Shown here: piece after piece, positions 1-7,991 of the stretch
How positions within the stretch are numbered: the stretch's first letter is position 1
Layout: the number at the start of each line of letters is the position of its first letter
Virus record (IMG/VR): IMGVR_UViG_2698536369_000013
Span: 1 to 7,991 of that record
From: a virus
Lineage: Duplodnaviria > Heunggongvirae > Uroviricota > Caudoviricetes
Length of the DNA: 7,991 bases
Reading direction: 5' to 3' (one strand)
The notes under the pieces: generated by a model
What the model was told of the DNA's origin: nothing
Database searches by the model: none
Seen by the model: only the letters and a program-made list of their open reading frames with translations
Program-made: the position numbers and the translations under genes

Positions 1-54
1 TGAACCGCCCCGGGAATCCTGGAGACTAAACTCCCTGAGAAAGAGGTAAACAGA

Positions 55-381
55 ATGACTAAAAATACTCGTTTTTCCCCCGAAGTCCGTCAGAGGGCGA
101 TTCGTATGGTTCTGGAAAGTCAGGGCGAATATGACTCACAGTGGGCGGCAATTTGTTCCATTGCCCCAAAGATTGGCTGTACACCGGAGACTCTGCGTGT
201 CTGGGTACGCCAGCATGAGCGGGATACCGGAGGCGGTGATGGCGGGCTCACCACCGCTGAACGTCAGCGTCTGAAAGAGCTGGAACGTGAAAATCGTGAA
301 CTGCGCCGCAGTAACGATATCCTTCGCCAGGCTTCCGCTTATTTTGCGAAGGCGGAGTTCGACCGCCTCTGGAAAAAGTGA
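55..381 (+). CDS. IS629 OrfA (transposase N-terminal HTH / leucine-zipper protein, 108 aa)
   Basis: ATG at 55, stop TGA at 379-381. Translation [22 protein letters not shown]...[32 protein letters not shown] is the typical IS3-family OrfA. Confidence 0.9.
373..378 (+). other. Putative programmed -1 ribosomal frameshift window (A-AAA-AG run at the orfA/orfB overlap)
   Basis: AAAAAG at 373-378 immediately before the OrfA stop and inside the orfA/orfB overlap. IS3-family elements typically frameshift on an A6G-type slippery motif. Exact heptamer register not verified. Confidence 0.45.
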
Positions 382-1268
382 TGCCACTGCTGGATAAGCT
401 GCGTAAGCTGTACGGGGTCGGACCGGTATGCAGTGAACTACATATTGCCCCGTCAACGTATTACCACTGTCAGCAACAGCGACATCATCCTTATAAACGC
501 AGTGCCCGTGCGCAGCGCGATGACTGGCTGAAGAAAGAGATACTGCGCGTATACGATGGGAATCATCAGGTATACGGTGTGCGTAAAGTCTGGCGTCAGT
601 TGTTACGGGAAGGAATCAGGGTAGCCAGATGTACAGTGGCGCGCCTCATGGCGGTTATGGGACTTGCCGGTGTTCTCCGGGGTAAAAAGGTCCGCACTAC
701 CGTCAGCCGGAAAGCCGTTGCCGCAGGCGACCGCGTAAACCGTCAGTTTGTGGCAGAACGTCCTGACCAGTTGTGGGTGGCTGATTTTACTTACGTCAGC
801 ACATGGCAGGGGGTCGTCTATGTGGCGTTCATCATTGATGTGTTTGCCGGATACATCGTGGGGTGGCGGGTCTCATCGTCTATGGAAACGACATTCGTGC
901 TGGATGCTCTGGAGCAGGCGTTATGGGCCCGTCGACCGTCCGGCACAGTCCATCACAGTGATAAAGGTTCTCAGTATGTATCGCTGGCCTACACACAGCG
1001 GCTTAAGGAAGCCGGATTACTGGCATCAACAGGAAGTACTGGTGACTCGTATGACAACGCGATGGCGGAGAGCATCAATGGCCTTTACAAAGCGGAGGTA
1101 ATACACCGTAAGAGCTGGAAAAACCGGACAGAAGTGGAGCTGGCCACACTCACGTGGGTGGACTGGTATAACAATCGACGATTGCTGGAAAGGCTGGGCC
1201 ATATCCCACCGGCAGAAGCAGAAAAAGCTTATTATGCTTCCATCGGCAACGATGATCTGGCAGCCTGA
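378..1268 (+). CDS. IS629 OrfB (DDE transposase catalytic domain, probably made as an OrfAB fusion by -1 frameshift)
   Basis: Open frame in -1 relative to OrfA, overlapping its 3' end; stop TGA at 1266-1268. DDE-type motifs visible ([25 protein letters not shown]). The independent start (GTG 378 / ATG 381) is uncertain because expression is normally by frameshifting. Confidence 0.85.
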
Positions 1269-1395
1269 GTTCACAGATAAAACACTCTCCAGGAAACCCG
1301 GGGCGGTTCATACCTTTCACGCGAACGCTGCCAGTTAATACTGACTCAGCTTGTTATGGCGGGTCTGGCAGATTATCAGTTCGGTTGTTACAGAC

Positions 1396-1420
1396 GCCTT
1401 CCGCAGTGAAGGCTTTTTAA
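1396..1420 (+). terminator. Candidate intrinsic terminator (GCCTTC-cgcagt-GAAGGC followed by TTTTTAATTT)
   Basis: 6-bp perfect stem 1396-1401/1408-1413, 6-nt loop, then T5 at 1414-1418. Short stem, so only moderate support. Lies between the IS629 right end and the methyltransferase gene. Confidence 0.4.
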
Positions 1421-1559
1421 TTTGTGGTAATGGGCGGCTGGTGGGTGTTAGCGGCACCTGCCAGCCATCTGTTCATGCGTTGGGGTCACAAGCAAACCTC
1501 AGGCCCATCTGCTTTGCGCAAAAGCGGTATGAGCCTATCAGAGAAGTGCTTATTGATCT

Positions 1560-2606
1560 ATGGCCAATACTGTAAAAATATCCAGTTGTGAGTTAATCAA
1601 CGCTGATTGCCTGGAATTTATCCAGACCTTACCGGAAAACTCTGTCGATCTGATAGTCACAGACCCGCCATACTTTAAAGTGAAGCCCGAGGGCTGGGAT
1701 AACCAGTGGAAGGGCGACGATGATTACCTGAAATGGCTGGACCGATGTCTGGCGCAGTTCTGGCGGGTACTGAAGCCTGCCGGAAGTCTCTACCTGTTCT
1801 GTGGTCATCGCCTGGCATCTGATATCGAAATCATGATGCGTGAACGCTTTAATGTGCTGAACCACATTATCTGGGCGAAGCCGTCCGGGCGCTGGAACGG
1901 ATGCAACAAGGAAAGCCTGCGGGCGTATTTCCCGGCAACAGAACGCATTCTGTTTGCAGAACATTATCAGGGGTCATACCTGCCCAAAAATGACGGCTAT
2001 GCGGCAAAGGGGCGTGAACTAAAACAGCACGTCATGGCCCCGCTGATTTCTTACTTTCGTGATGCGCGTGAATCACTAGGGATAACGTCAAGACAGATAG
2101 CGGAAGCCACCGGAAAGAAAAACATGGCTTCGCACTGGTTTGGTACCAGTCAGTGGCAGTTGCCGAACGAAGGCGATTATCTGAAATTACAGGCGTTGTT
2201 TGCGCGTATTGCAGCAGAAAAACATCAACGCGGGGAACTGGAAAAGCCACACCACCAGCTGGTCAGCACATACAGTGAACTGAACCGGCAATATGCCAGC
2301 CTGCTGGATGAGTACAAATCTCTGCGGCGTTATTTTTCCGTATCGGCTGCCGTTCCGTATACGGATGTCTGGACGCACAAGCCTGTGCAGTATTACCCCG
2401 GCAAACATCCCTGTGAGAAACCGGCGGATATGTTGCGTCAGATAATTACCGCCAGCAGCCATCCGGGAGATTTGGTTGCTGATTTTTTTATGGGGTCGGG
2501 ATCAACAATAAAAGCAGCATTATCGCTGGGACGGCATGCAATAGGTGTGGAGCTGGAAGAAGAGAGATTTAACCAGACTGTAAGCGAAATAAAAGAAAAT
2601 AGTTAA
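1560..2606 (+). CDS. DNA methyltransferase, beta-class amino-MTase (N6-adenine or N4-cytosine), 348 aa, no adjacent restriction gene
   Basis: ATG 1560, stop TAA 2604-2606. DPPY motif (IVTDPPYF) near the N-terminus and an AdoMet-binding FxGxG motif (DFFMGSGST) near the C-terminus, i.e. motif IV before motif I. No endonuclease partner in the window. SD is weak, so the start is not certain. Confidence 0.85.
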   Translation: MANTVKISSCELINADCLEFIQTLPENSVDLIVTDPPYFKVKPEGWDNQWKGDDDYLKWLDRCLAQFWRVLKPAGSLYLFCGHRLASDIEIMMRERFNVLNHIIWAKPSGRWNGCNKESLRAYFPATERILFAEHYQGSYLPKNDGYAAKGRELKQHVMAPLISYFRDARESLGITSRQIAEATGKKNMASHWFGTSQWQLPNEGDYLKLQALFARIAAEKHQRGELEKPHHQLVSTYSELNRQYASLLDEYKSLRRYFSVSAAVPYTDVWTHKPVQYYPGKHPCEKPADMLRQIITASSHPGDLVADFFMGSGSTIKAALSLGRHAIGVELEEERFNQTVSEIKENS

Positions 2607-2787
2607 ATATGTGTGTGATTATTTGTAATCAATCACGAGTGATAGAAATTTATACATATATTTACTAATATTGACACTATGTTTATTGAAATAGTGTTTG
2701 CCCTCATTAATATCAATAGTCGGTTCCGAGGAGATGACAGGGAAATAATGCATATATCGGTCGTTTTATTTTTTCCGAGGAACCGTT

Positions 2788-2860
2788 GCCGATTTAACTT
2801 AGCAGACAAAGCAACTGACTTGTAATCACCGGGTCGCCAGTTCGATTCCGGTAATCGGCA
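2788..2860 (+). tRNA. tRNA-like element, probably a degenerate or non-canonical tRNA (anticodon loop CTTGTAA would read UGU)
   Basis: Perfect 7-bp acceptor stem (GCCGATT / AATCGGC), canonical T-loop TTCGATT, and correct 73-nt spacing. But the anticodon stem has only 3 pairs, the D-stem 3 pairs, G19 is replaced by A, and no CCA is encoded. Confidence 0.3.
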
Positions 2861-2866
2861 CTATAT

Positions 2867-2941
<75 letters not shown>

Positions 2942-3223
2942 GCAGAGGACAATAGATGCTAGGTTGTGTTAGGCACTGACACATTATATGTGTGGGATGT
3001 TTTTGTTTTACCCTGACTCCTTACTACATCCCGTCCTGTAATGAATGTTATTTATTACGGTATCAGTGCTGATTTTTTTATAACATCGGAATGGCGCATT
3101 GTCGGTGGAGATTTTGTATTTCCTGACAGGGTCGGTGATGTGTCATCCCGATGTTGTAAACATCGCTAAAAATGACATTGAGATTAATCATATACTAAGC
3201 AAAACCTGGAAATACATCCTTTA

Positions 3224-3248
3224 CCGCCTCCACCGGGCGGTTTTTTTT
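3224..3248 (+). terminator. Rho-independent terminator downstream of the tRNA cluster
   Basis: CCGCC (3224-3228) / GGCGG (3236-3240) stem with 7-nt loop, followed by T8 (3241-3248). Confidence 0.6.
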
Positions 3249-3620
3249 ATTCTGAACCCTAAAAAAAGAAACACGGACACTGATAATGCCCGTGTGGCAA
3301 TGCCATGTAAGTTAGCGATGAATATGGCGCAAAAAAAGCGCGGCCGTCGGATTAACGCCGCGGGACAAAGTCCATGAAGAATCATAAGTATCTGTCTCCT
3401 TCAGGAGACGAGTTGATATTACTAAGCTTTAAAAATGGTTTAAATCCTCAGATTAACCTTAATTTCAGGTAAGTCTTATTTCATTTCTTTGCGCCACGCC
3501 CGGCGCACATCAAAAACCACAGAGCCTTTCAGGGGTGAGCTTACGGGATGGTCAGTGTGACTTTCTCTGTGGGCTGGTCACCCCCGGGCGCAGGCTCACC
3601 CACTAAAAGGAAAAGTCACG

Positions 3621-4046
3621 ATGTTTGGTATTTTCAAAAAGAAAACCCGCAAGGCCATTACCGAAGTGAAGAAGATGGAGAACCGCGACGCAGTGGAGGC
3701 GACCGTCTGGGGCGCGTATTCCATTGCATATGCTGACGACACCTGTGACGCGAAAGAAGTCGCGGTACTGGAGAAAACCATTGCAGCACTTCCTGCCTTT
3801 GCGCCGTTCTCGGGTGAGATTGCACAAATGAGTGCAAATATCCGCGCCCGTTATGAAGCGTCACCGCGTTCTGCCAATGCCGAAGCCCTTCGTCAGCTGG
3901 CTGATGTTGCCGGTACTGATGATGCAGTTAACGTGCTGTGTCTGTGTCTGGATATTGCTGACCAGGACGGCATCGGTCCTGATGAAGAAGTGCAGCTCAA
4001 GAAAATTGCACAGGCGTTGCAGTTGCCGCTGGAGCAGTACCTGTGA
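3621..4046 (+). CDS. TerB-like (tellurite-resistance TerB family) protein, 141 aa
   Basis: ATG 3621 with AAGGA about 9 nt upstream; stop TGA 4044-4046. N-terminus MFGIFKKK resembles the TerB N-terminus, and two motifs of the form A-x-A-D-[DG]...E...L (AYADDTCDAKEVAVLEKTIAAL and LDIADQDGIGPDEEVQLKKIAQAL) are characteristic of the TerB fold. Confidence 0.7.
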   Translation: MFGIFKKKTRKAITEVKKMENRDAVEATVWGAYSIAYADDTCDAKEVAVLEKTIAALPAFAPFSGEIAQMSANIRARYEASPRSANAEALRQLADVAGTDDAVNVLCLCLDIADQDGIGPDEEVQLKKIAQALQLPLEQYL

Positions 4047-4195
4047 AAAGTGCGCGCCTTGTGCTGGCTGCCATCCTGCTGTTTCTGGTAGTGGTGGTGG
4101 ATTTCACCGGACGGCTGATGTCGGTGCTGGCAGATGGTGTGCTGGTGGCGATGGCGCTGGTCGTGCTCCGGCCTTTACTGCGTAAATCTGAATAA
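4043..4195 (+). CDS. Small hydrophobic protein (50 aa, about 2 predicted TM helices), GTG start overlapping the TerB-like stop
   Basis: GTG at 4043 overlaps the TGA of the upstream gene (ctGTGAaa). Translation MKSARLVLAAILLFLVVVVDFTGRLMSVLADGVLVAMALVVLRPLLRKSE, stop TAA 4193-4195. Too short for the ORF track; found by manual translation. Followed by two hairpins. Confidence 0.4.
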   Translation: MKSARLVLAAILLFLVVVVDFTGRLMSVLADGVLVAMALVVLRPLLRKSE

Positions 4196-4242
4196 CACCA
4201 CACAAAAGGCATCTGCGGGTGCCTTTGATGGGGTGTTTTTAT

Positions 4243-4264
4243 GGGCCGTTGGTGGCCCTTTTTT
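4243..4264 (+). terminator. Rho-independent terminator between the TerB-like insert and the lysis cassette
   Basis: GGGCC (4243-4247) / GGCCC (4254-4258) stem, 6-nt loop, then T6 (4259-4264). Preceded by a second hairpin AAAGGCA...TGCCTTT at 4205-4225. Confidence 0.55.
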
Positions 4265-4282
4265 ATTTACAGGAGAAAAAGT

Positions 4283-4675
4283 ATGTCTGAACCCTTATCC
4301 GGTTCCGGCACGGCTGCGGCGCTCGGCGGGGCGACGGTATTCGGGCTGTTTACCGGAACGGATTTCGGGATTGTGTTTGGTGCGTTCGCCGGGGCGTTGT
4401 TTGTGGCAACGATGCCGCAGAAGATTTCAGCCTGGCGTGTGGCGGCACATTTTCTGGTGTCGTTCATTGTTGGTGTACTGGGGGCGCGTGTACTGTCAGC
4501 CTGGATTGCATCAAAAACAGGTTATGACGGTACATCTGCGGATGCACTGTGTGCGGTGCTGGTGGCGGTGGTGTCGGTGAAGATTCTGTCGTTCATCCAC
4601 CAGCAGGATATCGCATCACTGGTGTCCGGCCTGTTCTCGCGCCTGCGGGGCGGAGGAGGCGGCAATGTTAAGTAA
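4283..4675 (+). CDS. Putative holin / lysis membrane protein (130 aa, 3-4 predicted TM segments, Gly-rich)
   Basis: Strong SD AGGAG (4271-4275) then ATG 4283; stop TAA 4673-4675. Hydrophobic helices with GxxxG-like spacing and a charged C-terminal tail. Sits immediately upstream of the endolysin and is translationally coupled to the next gene. Confidence 0.6.
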   Translation: MSEPLSGSGTAAALGGATVFGLFTGTDFGIVFGAFAGALFVATMPQKISAWRVAAHFLVSFIVGVLGARVLSAWIASKTGYDGTSADALCAVLVAVVSVKILSFIHQQDIASLVSGLFSRLRGGGGGNVK

Positions 4676-4940
4676 CCTTCCCGGATTGCTGAATGTGGCG
4701 TTATGCACGGTTATCGTGCTGACGCTCTTTTTTTATCGTCGCCGTGATTCCAGACATAAACCGCTGATGTCATGGCTGGCCTGGTTGCTGATGCTGCTGT
4801 ATGCCTTTGCGCCCCTCAGCTATCTGTGTGGTCGCCCGTTAGCAACGGGCTGGCTGGAAGTGTTTTTTAATTTGTTGTTCTGCGTGCTGGTAATACGCGC
4901 ACGCGGGAACGTCACAAAAATCTTTCCATTGTTGAGGTGA
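4665..4940 (+). CDS. Second small membrane protein of the lysis cassette (91 aa, 2-3 TM; holin or antiholin-like)
   Basis: ATG 4665 overlaps the upstream stop (ATGTTAAGTAA); stop TGA 4938-4940 lies 2 nt before the endolysin ATG. Strongly hydrophobic (LLNVALCTVIVLTLFFY..., WLAWLLMLLYAF...). Confidence 0.55.
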   Translation: MLSNLPGLLNVALCTVIVLTLFFYRRRDSRHKPLMSWLAWLLMLLYAFAPLSYLCGRPLATGWLEVFFNLLFCVLVIRARGNVTKIFPLLR

Positions 4941-4942
4941 AT

Positions 4943-5320
4943 ATGCCGGGTAAATTCAGATTCAGCCGTCGGAGCGAGAAAAATCTGGAGGGCGTCAAAC
5001 CACAACTGGTTGCTGTCGTTCGCCGTGCCCTTGAGCTGACGGAAGTTGATTTCGGTATTACGGAAGGCCTGCGCAGTAAGTATCGCCAGAAACAGCTGGT
5101 CGCGGAAGGGAAAAGTCAGACCATGAACAGCCGCCATCTGACCGGTGATGCGGTGGATGTTGTGGCCTACGTTGGCAACCAGGTGTCATGGGACTGGCCT
5201 CTGTACGAGAAAATCGCGCAGGCATTTAAGCAGGCTGCCGCAGAGCTGGGAACTGCCATCGAATGGGGCGGGGACTGGAAAACACTGAAAGACGGGCCTC
5301 ACTTCCAATTGAAACGCTGA
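4943..5320 (+). CDS. Endolysin, peptidase M15 family (L-alanyl-D-glutamate / D-Ala-D-Ala type zinc peptidase), 125 aa
   Basis: SD GAGGTG (4934-4939) then ATG 4943; stop TGA 5318-5320. Motifs typical of M15 phage endolysins: SRHLTGDAVDV (His/Asp metal ligands) and a C-terminal GGDW...DGPHFQL block. Confidence 0.8.
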   Translation: MPGKFRFSRRSEKNLEGVKPQLVAVVRRALELTEVDFGITEGLRSKYRQKQLVAEGKSQTMNSRHLTGDAVDVVAYVGNQVSWDWPLYEKIAQAFKQAAAELGTAIEWGGDWKTLKDGPHFQLKR

Positions 5321-5334
5321 TAGCCGGGCGAGTT

Positions 5335-5517
5335 ATGAGCCGAAAACACTGGACACACAGAATGCCGCGAGCGGCGGCAAAATGGGCACTGGTAGCGATA
5401 CTGGTGCCTTTTTTATTGGTGGGGTGCGTCAGCCTGGATAAGGCGCGCCAGCTTTTCGATACGGCTTCTCAGGTCTGTGAAATTGTCGACGGTGTTCGAC
5501 AGTGTCTGCAGAGCTGA
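5335..5517 (+). CDS. Small lipoprotein (60 aa; possible o-spanin-like or accessory lysis lipoprotein)
   Basis: Signal peptide with lipobox: KWALVAILVPFLLVGC (Cys after LVG). Lies immediately after the endolysin. Start at ATG 5335 or 5362 is ambiguous; no C-terminal TM segment; not Pro-rich like classical Rz1. Confidence 0.5.
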   Translation: MSRKHWTHRMPRAAAKWALVAILVPFLLVGCVSLDKARQLFDTASQVCEIVDGVRQCLQS

Positions 5518-5690
5518 TCGCCCGTAAGAGCAGAATATTTCGCTGAAAAATGAAGGATGCGCCAGCGTCCGGAAGGCATGAAATTCTGCTGTGTGTGCCA
5601 ATTTGTCTTATACATTCTGAATCTTGCCGAATCAGGACGAACTTTGAACAACAGACCGGGCGGCAAGGGGCATTTTTATCCGGAGGGGAT

Positions 5691-5915
5691 ATGAAGAGAT
5701 TACTGGTAACCGTAAAGCCCTTTAACGGAACGATTCCATTCAGGGTTTTGCAGCGTGGACGTGTTCTGGTTAAGGATATCTTCAGTGGTAAATGCACGGA
5801 GTGTTATTCCCGGACATATGAAGTGGATGCCACGGATGAAGAAATTTCTGTTGAATGTGATCTGAACGCAAATATGGCGGGGATTGTAACGGCCACGTTG
5901 TTGCCTGTTTCATGA
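5691..5915 (+). CDS. Hypothetical small protein (74 aa) with a CxxC motif
   Basis: Strong SD GGAGGGG (5682-5688) then ATG 5691; stop TGA 5913-5915. Contains KCTEC plus a third Cys (VEC). The ORF track's longer form (from 5550) has no SD, so the 5691 start is preferred. Confidence 0.55.
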   Translation: MKRLLVTVKPFNGTIPFRVLQRGRVLVKDIFSGKCTECYSRTYEVDATDEEISVECDLNANMAGIVTATLLPVS

Positions 5916-5955
5916 ATGACATAGAATGTCTCTGGGTACCCAAAAGGAGAACACT

Positions 5956-6171
5956 ATGTTTGTAGAAAATAACCTGAAGGCTGATCCTGATAATCAGGGA
6001 TGGGTTCTTGGTTGGGCTGTAGTACGTGACAAACCCTGGCATCTGGTCGGCATTTATGCAACGGAGGATGGCGCAAAGTCTAAACGCTCTGAATTGAATG
6101 GGGAGTATGAAGTTCGTTATGGTTCCCATCGTTTAGGTAGTGATGATTTTATGTCTGTCGGACTTAGCTAA
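5956..6171 (+). CDS. Hypothetical small protein (71 aa)
   Basis: SD AGGAG (5944-5948) then ATG 5956; stop TAA 6169-6171. Lies 40 nt downstream of the previous gene and is followed by a strong terminator, so probably a two-gene unit. Confidence 0.55.
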   Translation: MFVENNLKADPDNQGWVLGWAVVRDKPWHLVGIYATEDGAKSKRSELNGEYEVRYGSHRLGSDDFMSVGLS

Positions 6172-6192
6172 CTGGCTGTGATGCCTGTTTGT

Positions 6193-6217
6193 AGCCCCGC
6201 AAATGCGGGGCTTTTTT
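6193..6217 (+). terminator. Strong rho-independent terminator
   Basis: AGCCCCGC (6193-6200) / GCGGGGC (6205-6211) GC-rich stem, 4-nt loop AAAT, then T6 (6212-6217). Confidence 0.75.
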
Positions 6218-6227
6218 ATATCTGGAG

Positions 6228-6626
6228 ATGATGATGGAAAAAACAGAAAATAAACCGATTTTAGTTGGTGTCGCGTCTATTCCGTTTAAGTTTGAACTGT
6301 CACAACTGGTGGAAGTACGCATCAGTGATGAATGGGGTGAGGTTAAAGCTCGCGCGCAGTATGCGGATGGCGAAAACCAGTACTTGATCCACTACAAGGC
6401 TGCTGATGGTCGCGCCACAACGGCGTGGTTTGGTGAGTCAATGCTGGAAGCAACAGAAGATGATCGCCATCCGGGCTGTCCGGTATTTGCCGGTATGAAA
6501 TTACCGGAAGGTGCAGTTGAACTGCAGCCGGGTGAGGTGTTCGTAATGACAGACATCATTGATGGTAAACCGCAGTATTCGCGTATTGAAATGAATAGTA
6601 AGAGTGCTCGCCTGATTCGTGAGTAA
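6228..6626 (+). CDS. Hypothetical protein (about 130 aa), function unknown
   Basis: GGAG (6224-6227) followed by three tandem ATGs (6228, 6231, 6234), so the exact start is ambiguous. Stop TAA 6624-6626. Clean ORF with no overlapping competitor; no motif I recognise. Confidence 0.65.
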   Translation: MMMEKTENKPILVGVASIPFKFELSQLVEVRISDEWGEVKARAQYADGENQYLIHYKAADGRATTAWFGESMLEATEDDRHPGCPVFAGMKLPEGAVELQPGEVFVMTDIIDGKPQYSRIEMNSKSARLIRE

Positions 6627-6630
6627 CAGG

Positions 6631-6669
6631 CATTACAGCAGCCCTTCACTCTAAGGGGTTGCTGTAATG
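6631..6669. repeat. Long inverted repeat / stem-loop (14-bp stem, 10-nt loop) right after the 6228-6626 gene
   Basis: CATTACAGCAGCCC (6631-6644) pairs with GGGGTTGCTGTAATG (6655-6669) with one G-U. No downstream T-tract, so not a classical intrinsic terminator. Confidence 0.6.
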
Positions 6670-6990
6670 TGAGAAATAAAAAACCGGCCACAGGGAGCAG
6701 CTACACAGAACCGGCCGGCGAAGACCGCCAATACCACCCATGCTTTGATGCAACATACTAATGACAATAGCCGCTATTGATGTAAATGCAATGTTATGCA
6801 TCGACGAAAATAAAAAACCGGCAGGGGAAATCCATTGAAGATTTGCCGGTGGCAAAAGAGGGCCATGTTTTTAACCTTAGTCGCAGAGTTACGGAGTGCA
6901 ACTACGAATGCTGCCGGTATATGGCTGAATGGCGTTTCAATGATGTACGTCATCTTATCTGTAAACGTTAATGACAAACGCTCTCATTTG

Positions 6991-7186
6991 TGCGGGTCCT
7001 TCCGGTGGGGTGGCCTGCCACGGGGCGGAAGGCGCGCGGGTTTTCGCTATTTATGAAAATTTTCCGGGGAAAATCATGTCGGTACTTCTCGAACATAACT
7101 ATTTGTTTTTTCTAATATCGAATCCGTAAAAGGTCCGACATGAAAACGCCTAAAAAAGTCATTTTCGGGCACTTTCATGTCGGACC
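6991..7186. other. cos: Phage cohesive-end site (cosQ-cosN-cosB) of a lambda-like packaging system
   Basis: About 190 bp upstream of Nu1, as in lambda. CGGGTCCTTCCGGTG (6993-7007) resembles lambda cosQ. Putative cosN is GGGCGGAAGGCG (7023-7034) against lambda GGGCGGCGACCT. The block CGCGGGTTTTCGCTATTTATGAAAATTTTCCGG (7035-7067) matches the start of lambda cosB as I recall it. Three R-like repeats follow. Confidence 0.75.
7073..7186. repeat. Three copies of a CATGTCGG-core repeat in + / - / + orientation (candidate terminase small-subunit binding sites)
   Basis: ATCATGTCGGTAC (7073-7085, +), GGTCCGACATGAAA (7132-7145, reverse orientation), TTTCATGTCGGACC (7173-7186, +). Copies 2 and 3 form a perfect 14-bp inverted repeat. 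An AT-rich spacer (7086-7131) between copies 1 and 2 sits where lambda has its IHF site. Confidence 0.6.
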
Positions 7187-7210
7187 CTGTGTTTGTTGTG
7201 AGACTGTTTC

Positions 7211-7756
7211 ATGAAGGTTAATAAAAAGAAGCTTGCCGAAATTTTCAACGTGGATCCGCGAACGATTGAACGCTGGCAGTCTCAGGGACTCCCTTGCGTC
7301 TCCGGAGGTGGTAAGGGCGTTGAATCTGTATTTGATACCTCCATGGCAATTCAGTGGTATGCGCAGAGGGAGGCTGATATCGAAAATGAAAAACTCCGTA
7401 AAGAGGTTGAGGATTACAGGGCTGCCAGTGAGGCAGATCTCCAGCCTGGGACTATTGAGTACGAACGCCATCGACTTACGCGTGCGCAGGCCGACGCACA
7501 GGAGCTGAAGAATGCCAGAGACTCCGCAGAAGTGGTGGAAACCGCATTCTGTACTTTCGTGCTGTCACGGATCGCAGGTGAAATTGCCAGTATTCTTGAC
7601 GGGATCCCTCTCTCGGTACAGCGGCGTTTTCCGGAACTGGAAAACCGACATGTTGATTTCCTGAAACGGGATATCATCAAAGCCATGAACAAAGCAGCCG
7701 CGCTGGATGAACTGATACCGGGGTTGCTGAGTGAATATATCGAACAGTCAGGTTAA
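7211..7756 (+). CDS. nu1: Terminase small subunit, lambda Nu1-like (181 aa)
   Basis: ATG 7211, stop TAA 7754-7756. From about residue 70 onward the protein is essentially identical to lambda Nu1 as I recall it ([42 protein letters not shown]...LSEYIEQSG). The N-terminal winged-HTH region ([28 protein letters not shown]...) is clearly related but diverged. Confidence 0.95.
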
Positions 7757-7991
7757 CAGGCTGCGGCATTTTGTCCGCGCCGGGCTTCGCTCACTGTTCA
7801 GGCCGGAGCCACAGACCGCCGTTGAATGGGCGGATGCCAATTACTATCTCCCGAAAGAATCCGCATACCAGGAAGGGCGCTGGGAAACACTGCCCTTTCA
7901 GCGGGCCATCATGAATGCGATGGGCAGCGACTACATCCGTGAGGTGAATGTGGTGAAGTCTGCCCGTGTCGGTTATTCCAAAATGCTGCTG
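7731..7991 (+). CDS. A: Terminase large subunit, lambda gpA-like (5' partial, first 87 codons; continues beyond the window)
   Basis: GTG start at 7731, overlapping the Nu1 3' end by 26 nt exactly as in lambda. Translation [87 protein letters not shown] matches the lambda A N-terminus. Confidence 0.9.

Follow-up and report, generated by a model that had tools for sequence, protein, structure and literature searches.

We have analyzed a stretch of 7,991 nucleotides (the window), which is positions 1 to 7,991 of the IMG/VR virus record IMGVR_UViG_2698536369_000013 (Caudoviricetes) and is the late region of a lambdoid Escherichia coli prophage. At about 3484-4271 it carries a mobile cassette made of a structured leader, two overlapping genes and a 3' end with two hairpins. 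By their sequences the two genes are homologues of tciA and tciB of phage P1, the first coding for a TerB-family protein of 141 amino acids (aa) and the second for a membrane protein of 50 aa. The gene pair belongs to an already known family that has a name, profiles in Pfam and PHROG and routine annotations, and it sits in a known cargo slot. What may be new is the conserved leader, predicted to be pseudoknotted and to occlude the Shine-Dalgarno sequence (SD) of tciA. We consider it likely that this leader is a real cis-regulatory RNA that has not been described before. As to the pair itself, the best overall explanation, and one that we find rather more plausible than not, is a membrane-associated complex that acts on the envelope of the infected cell in lytic development and whose translation is gated by the leader. 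A first-pass annotation of the window had picked out the gene pair, but it left the identity with P1 tciA and tciB unrecognised and overlooked the structured leader.

The structured leader of tciA

The approximately 140 nt between the left edge of the cassette and the start codon are better conserved than the gene that follows them. The leader is about 87% identical in phage JLK-2012 and in O157 prophages, though TciA there is only about 41% identical, and it is still 72-73% identical in Erwinia jumbo phages. It was found at 2,899 places in 1,302 of the 5,426 complete E. coli genomes searched, about a quarter of them, with up to six copies in each. We drew a sample of copies by means of a pattern for the leader core, independently of tciA, and among the 85 that could be assessed a TerB-like open reading frame (ORF) lay 95-110 nt downstream in 80 (94%). 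On these numbers we largely dismissed the idea that the leader belongs to the late operon in general and has nothing to do with tciA, the remaining five copies having the look of deletion or recombination derivatives.

The helices of the leader are given in Table 1. PK1 and P-a cross the stem formed by P-b and P3, and therefore the structure can be described as a long hairpin in which the internal loop is paired to the loop of H1 and the apical loop to the 5' flank. Such a predicted fold amounts to a double pseudoknot that encloses the SD at its foot. The nested structure given by RNAalifold lacked P-a and PK1, which were recovered by an unbiased helix scan and inspection.

Pairing has been kept through considerable change in sequence. 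The H1 stems of three Erwinia sequences are wholly different in sequence from the rest, PK1 varies among C-G (20 sequences), U-A (14) and G-C (1), and the upper part of P-b covaries (A-U in 24, G-C in 10) above a base that is invariant and 99.4% paired. Over 35 distinct leaders the proportion of paired cells was 95.4%, against 32-57% when the partners were slid, and the covariation score was 0.135, against 0.062 or less for the slid versions; the helices were partly derived from the tested sequences themselves, which inflates this slide control. Double changes were found at 12 pairs, compared with 5.5 +/- 1.1 in shuffles (0 of 500). A test that needs no alignment gave the same picture for P-a, with eight of eight pairs formed in 81 of 82 unique leaders, while a shuffled 5' strand reaches eight pairs in 0.5% of trials. 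Two fully compensated versions of this helix exist, CCACAGAG/CTCTGTGG and, in jumbo phages, CCGUAGAG/CUCUACGG.

A covariance model built from the nested helices detected the leader in a Salmonella jumbo phage (77 bits). With the same model P1 gave no match, and neither did the N4-like, Pseudomonas, Vibrio and Pantoea phages or the enterobacterial loci that are not lambdoid, so that the leader as a universal feature of tciA was discarded. No Rfam 15 match overlaps 3484-3620 at E <= 0.1, the models for yybP-ykoY, AgvB, AsxR, STnc100 and Esr41 being included, and on this ground we rejected its being a known RNA (yybP-ykoY, AgvB, AsxR, STnc100, a tRNA-like structure or a ribozyme). Literature searches returned no description of such a leader. 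Covarying structure, linkage to one gene family and overlap with a ribosome-binding site (RBS) are what is expected of a cis-regulatory leader, and all of them are found here.

Pseudoknotted leaders that sequester the SD are well known from the preQ1-II and SAM-II riboswitches, and the yybP-ykoY Mn2+ riboswitch precedes TerC-family genes. The tciA leader resembles translational riboswitches in its compact, covarying, crossing helices and in a closing stem that pairs an anti-SD with the SD. It differs from them in having no Rfam match and in that its conservation is concentrated in the stems more than in the junctions. That it represents an undescribed double-pseudoknotted class that sequesters the RBS of tciA and opens to a specific signal, be it a ligand or metal ion, temperature or TciA itself, is a possibility that we put forward tentatively and regard as rather doubtful. 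An attenuator that binds a protein, senses temperature or works constitutively would be just as possible.

Some incomplete copies were also seen. The leaders in L215, L225, L187, L121, L238, L135 and L149 keep H1, PK1, P-a and P3 and have lost the SD-pairing base and tciA; L215 has two leader copies, and L238 has a holin-like membrane protein of 100 aa about 330 nt 3' of the leader. Such SD-less copies may be recombination scars, or the core fold may have a role of its own. A widespread remnant in E. coli chromosomes (L118 and L119, 1494-1744) lacks tciA: its leader has diverged to about 72% identity (83-91 bits with the covariance model) and is directly followed by a truncated DUF3927 pseudogene.

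The TciA and TciB proteins

Both ORFs had been correctly delimited by the first-pass annotation (3621-4046 and 4043-4195), including their overlap of 4 bp. The product of tciA is a soluble six-helix protein of the TerB family. The TerB fold claimed for it earlier was borne out by a profile search, in which it scored above the gathering score of Pfam TerB (PF05099; 26.8 against 24.4 bits, E 7e-6), with an alignment that covers residues 11-57 only and corresponds to positions 60-106 of the profile. Its homologues Caitlin gp5, AF gp48 and BUCT194 gp099 align to positions 2-112 of the same profile with E values of 1e-15 to 1e-17, and PHROG 632 ('tellurite resistance') matches the window protein over its full length (4e-63). 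The protein is all-helical, as a TerB-like fold should be. Members of the TerB family have duplicated acidic ADGxxxxxE motifs for which metal binding has been proposed. Of 60 family members, 90% or more share D39, G40, E46, A113 and E122, and the first acidic motif of the window protein reads ADD instead of ADG. The gene is under strong purifying selection, with a ratio of nonsynonymous to synonymous polymorphism (pN/pS) of 0.10.

TciB is matched at residues 4-48 by Pfam DUF3927 (PF13064; 54 bits against a gathering score of 25, E 1.6e-14) and also by PHROG 1470 ('TciB-like'). It is very hydrophobic, with a grand average of hydropathy of 1.45 and hydrophobic stretches at 6-19 and 25-42 on either side of an invariant DFTGR motif. 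Both termini are basic, favouring an orientation with both ends inside, which together with the hydropathy favours a hairpin. The two-helix membrane protein proposed in the first-pass annotation is thus in line with the hydrophobic stretches and the basic termini, but not with the structural model described below. For tciB the pN/pS was 0.55 in the coding frame and 0.82 and 0.98 when the frame was shifted; the constraint is frame-specific, as it is for tciA, and weaker than that on tciA. From the GTGA overlap we predict that tciB is translationally coupled to tciA. It had been expected that default annotation would miss the small gene, which is not the case: RefSeq annotates both genes through the Prokaryotic Genome Annotation Pipeline (PGAP) as 'tellurite resistance TerB family protein' and 'DUF3927 family protein', and a 100% identical copy is present in NZ_CM142761.1. 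No NCBIfam model matches either protein, and neither matches any defence-system model of PADLOC-DB v2 at E <= 0.1.

The closest named relatives are in P1 (NC_005856 gp074-076), where, in an annotation by Lobocka and co-workers dated 2004, the genes reportedly received the names tciA, tciB and tciC. TciA of P1 is 84% identical over all 141 residues (E 4e-90) and TciB 49% identical (E 1e-10). Gene order, the start/stop overlap and the presence of tRNA genes nearby are the same in P1 and in the window. The surroundings differ: the window cassette lies in a Q-dependent late operon beside the lysis genes, whereas the P1 pair belongs to the ban operon, an early operon repressed by C1. P1 also lacks the structured leader and the 3' end with two hairpins. 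On the other side, tciC has no counterpart in the window (tblastn found it only in P1 and in one P1-like locus), the hairpins filling the space after tciB.

The pair as a travelling unit

We fetched 108 loci with a tciA homologue, found with an alignment of 10 close sequences. An intact DUF3927 ORF directly adjoins the tciA homologue in 103 of them, confirming that the small ORF is kept beside the TerB-like gene. The overlap is 4 bp in 98 of these pairs and 1 bp in the other five. The exceptions are L024, a divergent copy that fell under the search threshold, L086, a rearranged contig, and contig ends. The loci code for 42 different TciB peptides, all with the invariant core VDFTxxxMSxLADGVLV. 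A fusion of TerB and DUF3927 of 196 aa (P0056) was found in one contig only and was set aside as probably a frameshift artefact.

A close variant of the pair is present in about 165 of the 5,426 E. coli genomes, and a divergent one, with TciA about 41% identical, is much commoner, for example in O157 prophages, where the cassette is present several times per genome. Among annotated prophages the pair is found directly 5' of the holin in two unrelated lysis cassettes. TciA homologues are present in 91 phage records, and TciB-like partners recur among them. Strictly lytic phages are also represented, namely the N4-like phages Pollock and FSL SP-076, Erwinia and Salmonella jumbo phages and the Pantoea phage LIET2. 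Pollock TciB retains LLFLVVAIDFTSKVMSILADGVLVA with a TciA that is only 29% identical, and in distant pairs generally the core of TciB is more conserved than TciA. This persistence of the core beyond the similarity of TciA suggests a contact between the membrane element and some conserved host component.

Two further phages are of interest regarding the partner of the TerB-like gene. In Pseudomonas phage AF (L111 2432-2653) an unannotated ORF of 73 aa, with a GTG start and one predicted transmembrane segment, overlaps the stop of the TerB-like gene by 4 bp and would be a non-homologous analogue of tciB. In the N4-like Vibrio phage BUCT194 (L112 424-2677) the TerB-like gene is beside a true TerC-family membrane protein (Pfam, 3e-41), and a second TerB-family gene is followed by a soluble ORF of 83 aa. 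The coupling of a TerB-like gene to a small membrane protein thus appears to recur even with a non-homologous partner.

The labels of a few records look doubtful as regards host or organism. In 'Actinobacillus phage vB_Apl-pPE4' (PP818812, L002), deposited as infecting Actinobacillus, the cassette and the lysis genes match E. coli prophage DNA with 92-98% identity, and contigs labelled as a Bacillota metagenome-assembled genome, Pseudomonas lundensis, Acinetobacter and Kocuria (L013, L019, L027 and L028) carry enterobacterial tciA that is 80-94% identical.

The cargo slot and the borders of the cassette

The cassette occupies the cargo ('moron') slot of the late operon, 3' of Q, the methylase and the tRNAs and 5' of the lysis genes. 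The first-pass annotation had held that Stx-converting phages keep their toxin genes in this slot, and the comparison with phiP27 agrees. In that phage the order is methylase, tRNA-Ile, tRNA-Arg, stxA2e, stxB2e and holin/holin/endolysin, matching the window with stx2e as the cargo. DNA homology to phiP27 begins at position 1311 of the window, ends past the methylase and restarts at 4101, inside tciB. Directly after stxB2e, phiP27 keeps a frameshifted remnant of tciB (L003 3943-4104), where the record shows a hypothetical ORF on the minus strand (L27). Because of this remnant, an ancestor would have had tciA, together with the 5' portion of tciB, replaced by stx2e, and the remnant and the homology gap together indicate that stx2e and tciAB are alternative cargos of one slot. 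Like Stx and other morons, the cassette lies between tRNAs and holin; unlike stx, its cargo is not a toxin, and a promoter of its own was not detected by our scan. The insertion site for morons proximal to pR' was described by Tree et al., as were small RNA (sRNA) genes 3' of the moron.

JLK-2012 has annotated tciA and tciB in the same slot (Q, tRNA-Asn/Thr/Gly, tciA, tciB, nanS-p, S), and the order in O157 prophages is tRNA-Ile, tRNA-Arg, leader, TerB, DUF3927, nanS-p. We also observed tRNA genes flanking tciAB in unrelated phage types: P1 (L001), JLK-2012 (L113), O157 prophages (L120) and Erwinia (L110, L116 and L117) and Salmonella (L241) jumbo phages. P1 and JLK-2012 share the order tRNA-Asn, tRNA-Thr upstream of the pair, and the jumbo phages have tRNA-Trp, then a small ORF, tRNA-Cys, the leader and terB.

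Of 93 loci, 71 have the left edge of homology at 3460-3499. On the right, homology stops at about 4271, past the U-run of the second hairpin, in every locus with the other type of lysis cassette, and the RBS and start codon (4283) of the holin gene follow directly. The earlier description of the pair as an insert bounded by terminators therefore holds for the tandem hairpins downstream, which belong to the unit, but not for the upstream terminator (3223-3241), which lies outside it. The region 4190-4282 folds with -34.8 kcal/mol (z-score -4.0), and terminator-like sites in the region number nine, against 1.9 +/- 1.3 expected. The tandem hairpins with their U-runs (4194-4271) provide the terminator of its own downstream that is typical of a moron, and they are predicted to stop transcription just ahead of the holin gene. 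Variants of tciB in L070 and L030 have a terminator of differing sequence at the same place. A consensus scan gave no sigma-70-like promoter in 3250-3620, nor was any convincing by eye, the scan being crude and limited to the sigma-70 type.

Of the 5,426 E. coli genomes, 533 have the 3' element of 84 nt with the two hairpins (4192-4275), and in many cases the annotation shows no DUF3927 gene beneath it. The element has the architecture of an Hfq-dependent sRNA derived from a 3' untranslated region, that is, a 5' hairpin and a U-tailed terminator, and adjoins the holin operon. The likeness to the prophage sRNAs AgvB, AsxR and PasA/PasC is in architecture and in the position between moron and holin only. 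The Rfam models for AgvB (RF02702) and AsxR (RF02703) do not match the window, and no Rfam 15 match overlaps 4190-4282 at E <= 0.1.

Table 1. Coordinates of the features in the window, in order of position.
Feature	Position	Strand	Remarks
IS3-family insertion sequence (IS) element (orfA/orfB)	55-1268		Upstream of the methylase gene
ALIL frameshift pseudoknot of the IS3-family element	336-452		Rfam RF01497, 116 bits
N6/N4 DNA methylase	1560-2606		
tRNA-like element	2788-2860	+	Rfam tRNA 45.9 bits (gathering score 29); no ARAGORN call
tRNA-Gly (tcc)	2867-2941	+	ARAGORN; Rfam tRNA 65.6 bits
Terminator-like hairpin	3223-3241 + T8 (to 3249)	+	7-bp stem with 5 GC pairs (consensus scan); fold -12.9 kcal/mol
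Structured 5' leader of tciA, ~120 nt	3491-3610	+	
Helix H1	3491-3495/3502-3506		100% paired; double changes at 4 of 5 pairs
PK1	3497-3501/3586-3590		H1 loop CGCCC with GGGCG; 99.4% paired
P-a	3517-3524/3565-3572		
P-b	3525-3540/3594-3610		Base CCUUU pairs with the SD AAAGG (3606-3610)
P3	3545-3550/3579-3584		A-U, G-C and G-U variants
tciA homologue	3621-4046	+	ATG start; cytoplasmic TerB-family protein, 141 aa
tciB homologue	4043-4195	+	GTG start; 4-bp overlap (GTGA) with tciA; DUF3927 small membrane protein, 50 aa
First 3' hairpin	4194-4237	+	Followed by UUUUUA; moves with the cassette where the lysis genes differ
Second 3' hairpin and U-run	4243-4271 (hairpin 4243-4258 + T6)	+	Consensus scan; terminator-like; right edge of the cassette
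Phage_holin_8 holin	4283-4675		phiP27-type lysis cassette
3TM holin	4665-4940		phiP27-type lysis cassette
M15 endolysin	4937-5320		phiP27-type lysis cassette
Nu1 small terminase	7211-7756		

Outside the cassette, relatives annotate a tRNA-Thr at the position of the tRNA-like element. The IS element interrupts the interval between Q/pR' and the methylase, since homology to phiP27 begins just after it. A long hairpin at 3070-3170 (-37 kcal/mol, z-score -4.7) is followed by convergent terminator-like hairpins at 3223-3241 (plus strand) and 3295-3271 (minus strand), and the layout of 3070-3300 recalls the convergent sRNA pairs reported from the moron region of prophages of enterohaemorrhagic E. 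coli. An ORF at 5263-5517 overlaps the end of the endolysin gene and has a lipobox-like LLVGC; only PHROG 7528, of unknown function, matches it, and it may be a spanin. At 6084-6219 there is a weak, sub-threshold Rfam match to GcvB (25 bits, E 0.019).

A possible function for TciA and TciB

TciA and TciB would form a membrane-associated complex, by analogy with TerB, which binds TerC and attaches to the inner membrane. TciB would tether TciA at the inner membrane or be its partner there, the complex would adjust the physiology of the inner membrane or envelope while the phage develops lytically in the infected cell, and the folded leader would hold translation of tciA low until a signal or event opens it. 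We propose a membrane partner because of the TerB-TerC precedent, the pair of TerB-like and TerC-family genes in BUCT194 and the overlapping one-transmembrane ORF of phage AF. In the terZABCDE operon, as here, a gene for a membrane protein adjoins that of TerB, and TciA is a full-length TerB-family protein. A role in lytic infection is suggested because strictly lytic phages keep the pair and because in P1 it is part of the ban operon, repressed by C1. The three tci genes are, besides, transcribed during P1vir infection. The pair probably serves lytic infection and not only the protection of lysogens, and a function solely in protecting lysogens is unlikely.

Several results weigh against this reading or parts of it. 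In a CRISPR interference screen tciA, tciB and tciC were non-essential for plaque formation by P1. The Pfam TerB match of the window protein is marginal as well as partial, Foldseek gave no match in the PDB, and the sequence search of the PDB yielded nothing meaningful. AlphaFold2 models TciB not as a hairpin but as one continuous helix (residues 2-47) with a predicted local distance difference test score of 93. As for the leader, five of the 85 sampled copies are without tciA, having kept the 5' part of the leader joined to other sequence, and the base that pairs with the SD is invariant and therefore has no covariation of its own. Finally, terminators right after tciB make most sense if transcription sometimes proceeds without antitermination by Q, as for example in lysogens, which would fit a benefit to the lysogen.

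Such a benefit is the core of the alternative that survives best, a defence acquired by lysogenic conversion. The cassette would be expressed by the prophage and would shield the lysogen, either through superinfection exclusion or abortive infection or by making it resistant to pore-forming colicins or to envelope stress, with TciB acting at the inner membrane and TciA as sensor or regulator. The moron slot is the same as that of stx, the cassette occurs very often, and in multiple copies, among E. coli prophages, and strong terminators are conserved after tciB despite differing sequence, where they would insulate the holin from transcription that is not antiterminated. The ter operon of IncHI2 plasmids confers phage inhibition and colicin resistance, phenotypes that are reflected in the annotation of P1. 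TerB domains are moreover present in the validated defence systems Bunzi (BnzA), Shango (SngA) and Dionysus (DinB), which share with our pair the association of a TerB domain with a membrane protein and for which surveillance of the membrane has been proposed. Unlike these systems, the pair has no PADLOC match and no helicase, ATPase or pore-forming toxin as partner, and it is encoded by phages, virulent ones among them. Strictly lytic phages have no lysogen to protect and keep the pair, the consensus scan showed no promoter-like site in 3250-3620, and the P1 operon is repressed by C1 precisely in lysogens. The first-pass annotation had favored a module for superinfection exclusion, abortive infection or envelope stress; the missing PADLOC match, the scan without a promoter-like site and the lytic phages lend it no support, and we regard a lysogen defence as unlikely.

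Other roles are less likely. TciB, together with TciA, might modulate the triggering of the holin or the energisation of the membrane, in the manner of an antiholin or of lysis inhibition, and this would explain both the position of the pair directly 5' of two unrelated holin families in lambdoid prophages and the tiny, very hydrophobic nature of TciB. A role in lysis timing is nevertheless improbable: the pair is away from the lysis genes in P1, N4-like and jumbo phages, an esterase gene of 1.8 kb separates it from the holin in the O157 and JLK-2012 prophages, terminators do so in the window, and stx, which has no lysis role, uses the same slot. It is hardly more credible that the pair is a counter-defence decoy, a TerB look-alike tethered by TciB that would interfere with TerB systems of the host (ter, Shango, Bunzi or Dionysus-like) or with TerB-like stress proteins of the host, such as DjlA and YebE. 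Many virulent phages do carry the pair in early or middle gene regions, TerB domains are parts of several defence systems and the TerB-like domain of DjlA is linked to envelope signalling, but the proposal is purely inferential and neither a dedicated membrane partner nor a structured leader would obviously be needed. A genuine determinant of tellurite or colicin resistance, as the names in P1, PHROG and PGAP and the membership in the TerB family would have it, is the least probable of all, the names resting on homology only and terC (whose product is regarded as the key membrane component of the ter system), terD, terE and terZ being absent from the window ORFs and from the cassette.

Implications for phage TerB proteins

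The family described here is very common: many E. coli prophages have it in the slot that corresponds to that of stx, and it is also found in P1-like phage-plasmids and in N4-like and jumbo phages. Its retention by strictly lytic phages narrows the role of TciA and TciB, which probably act during infection, and the recurring coupling of a TerB-like protein with a small membrane protein points to a membrane-tethered complex analogous to TerB-TerC. The leader that is predicted to occlude the RBS offers an experimental handle on when and why phages make these proteins. If it is indeed opened by a signal, TciA and TciB would be a signal-gated membrane module that is switched on during infection, and the signal sensed by the leader would point to the function of phage TerB proteins.

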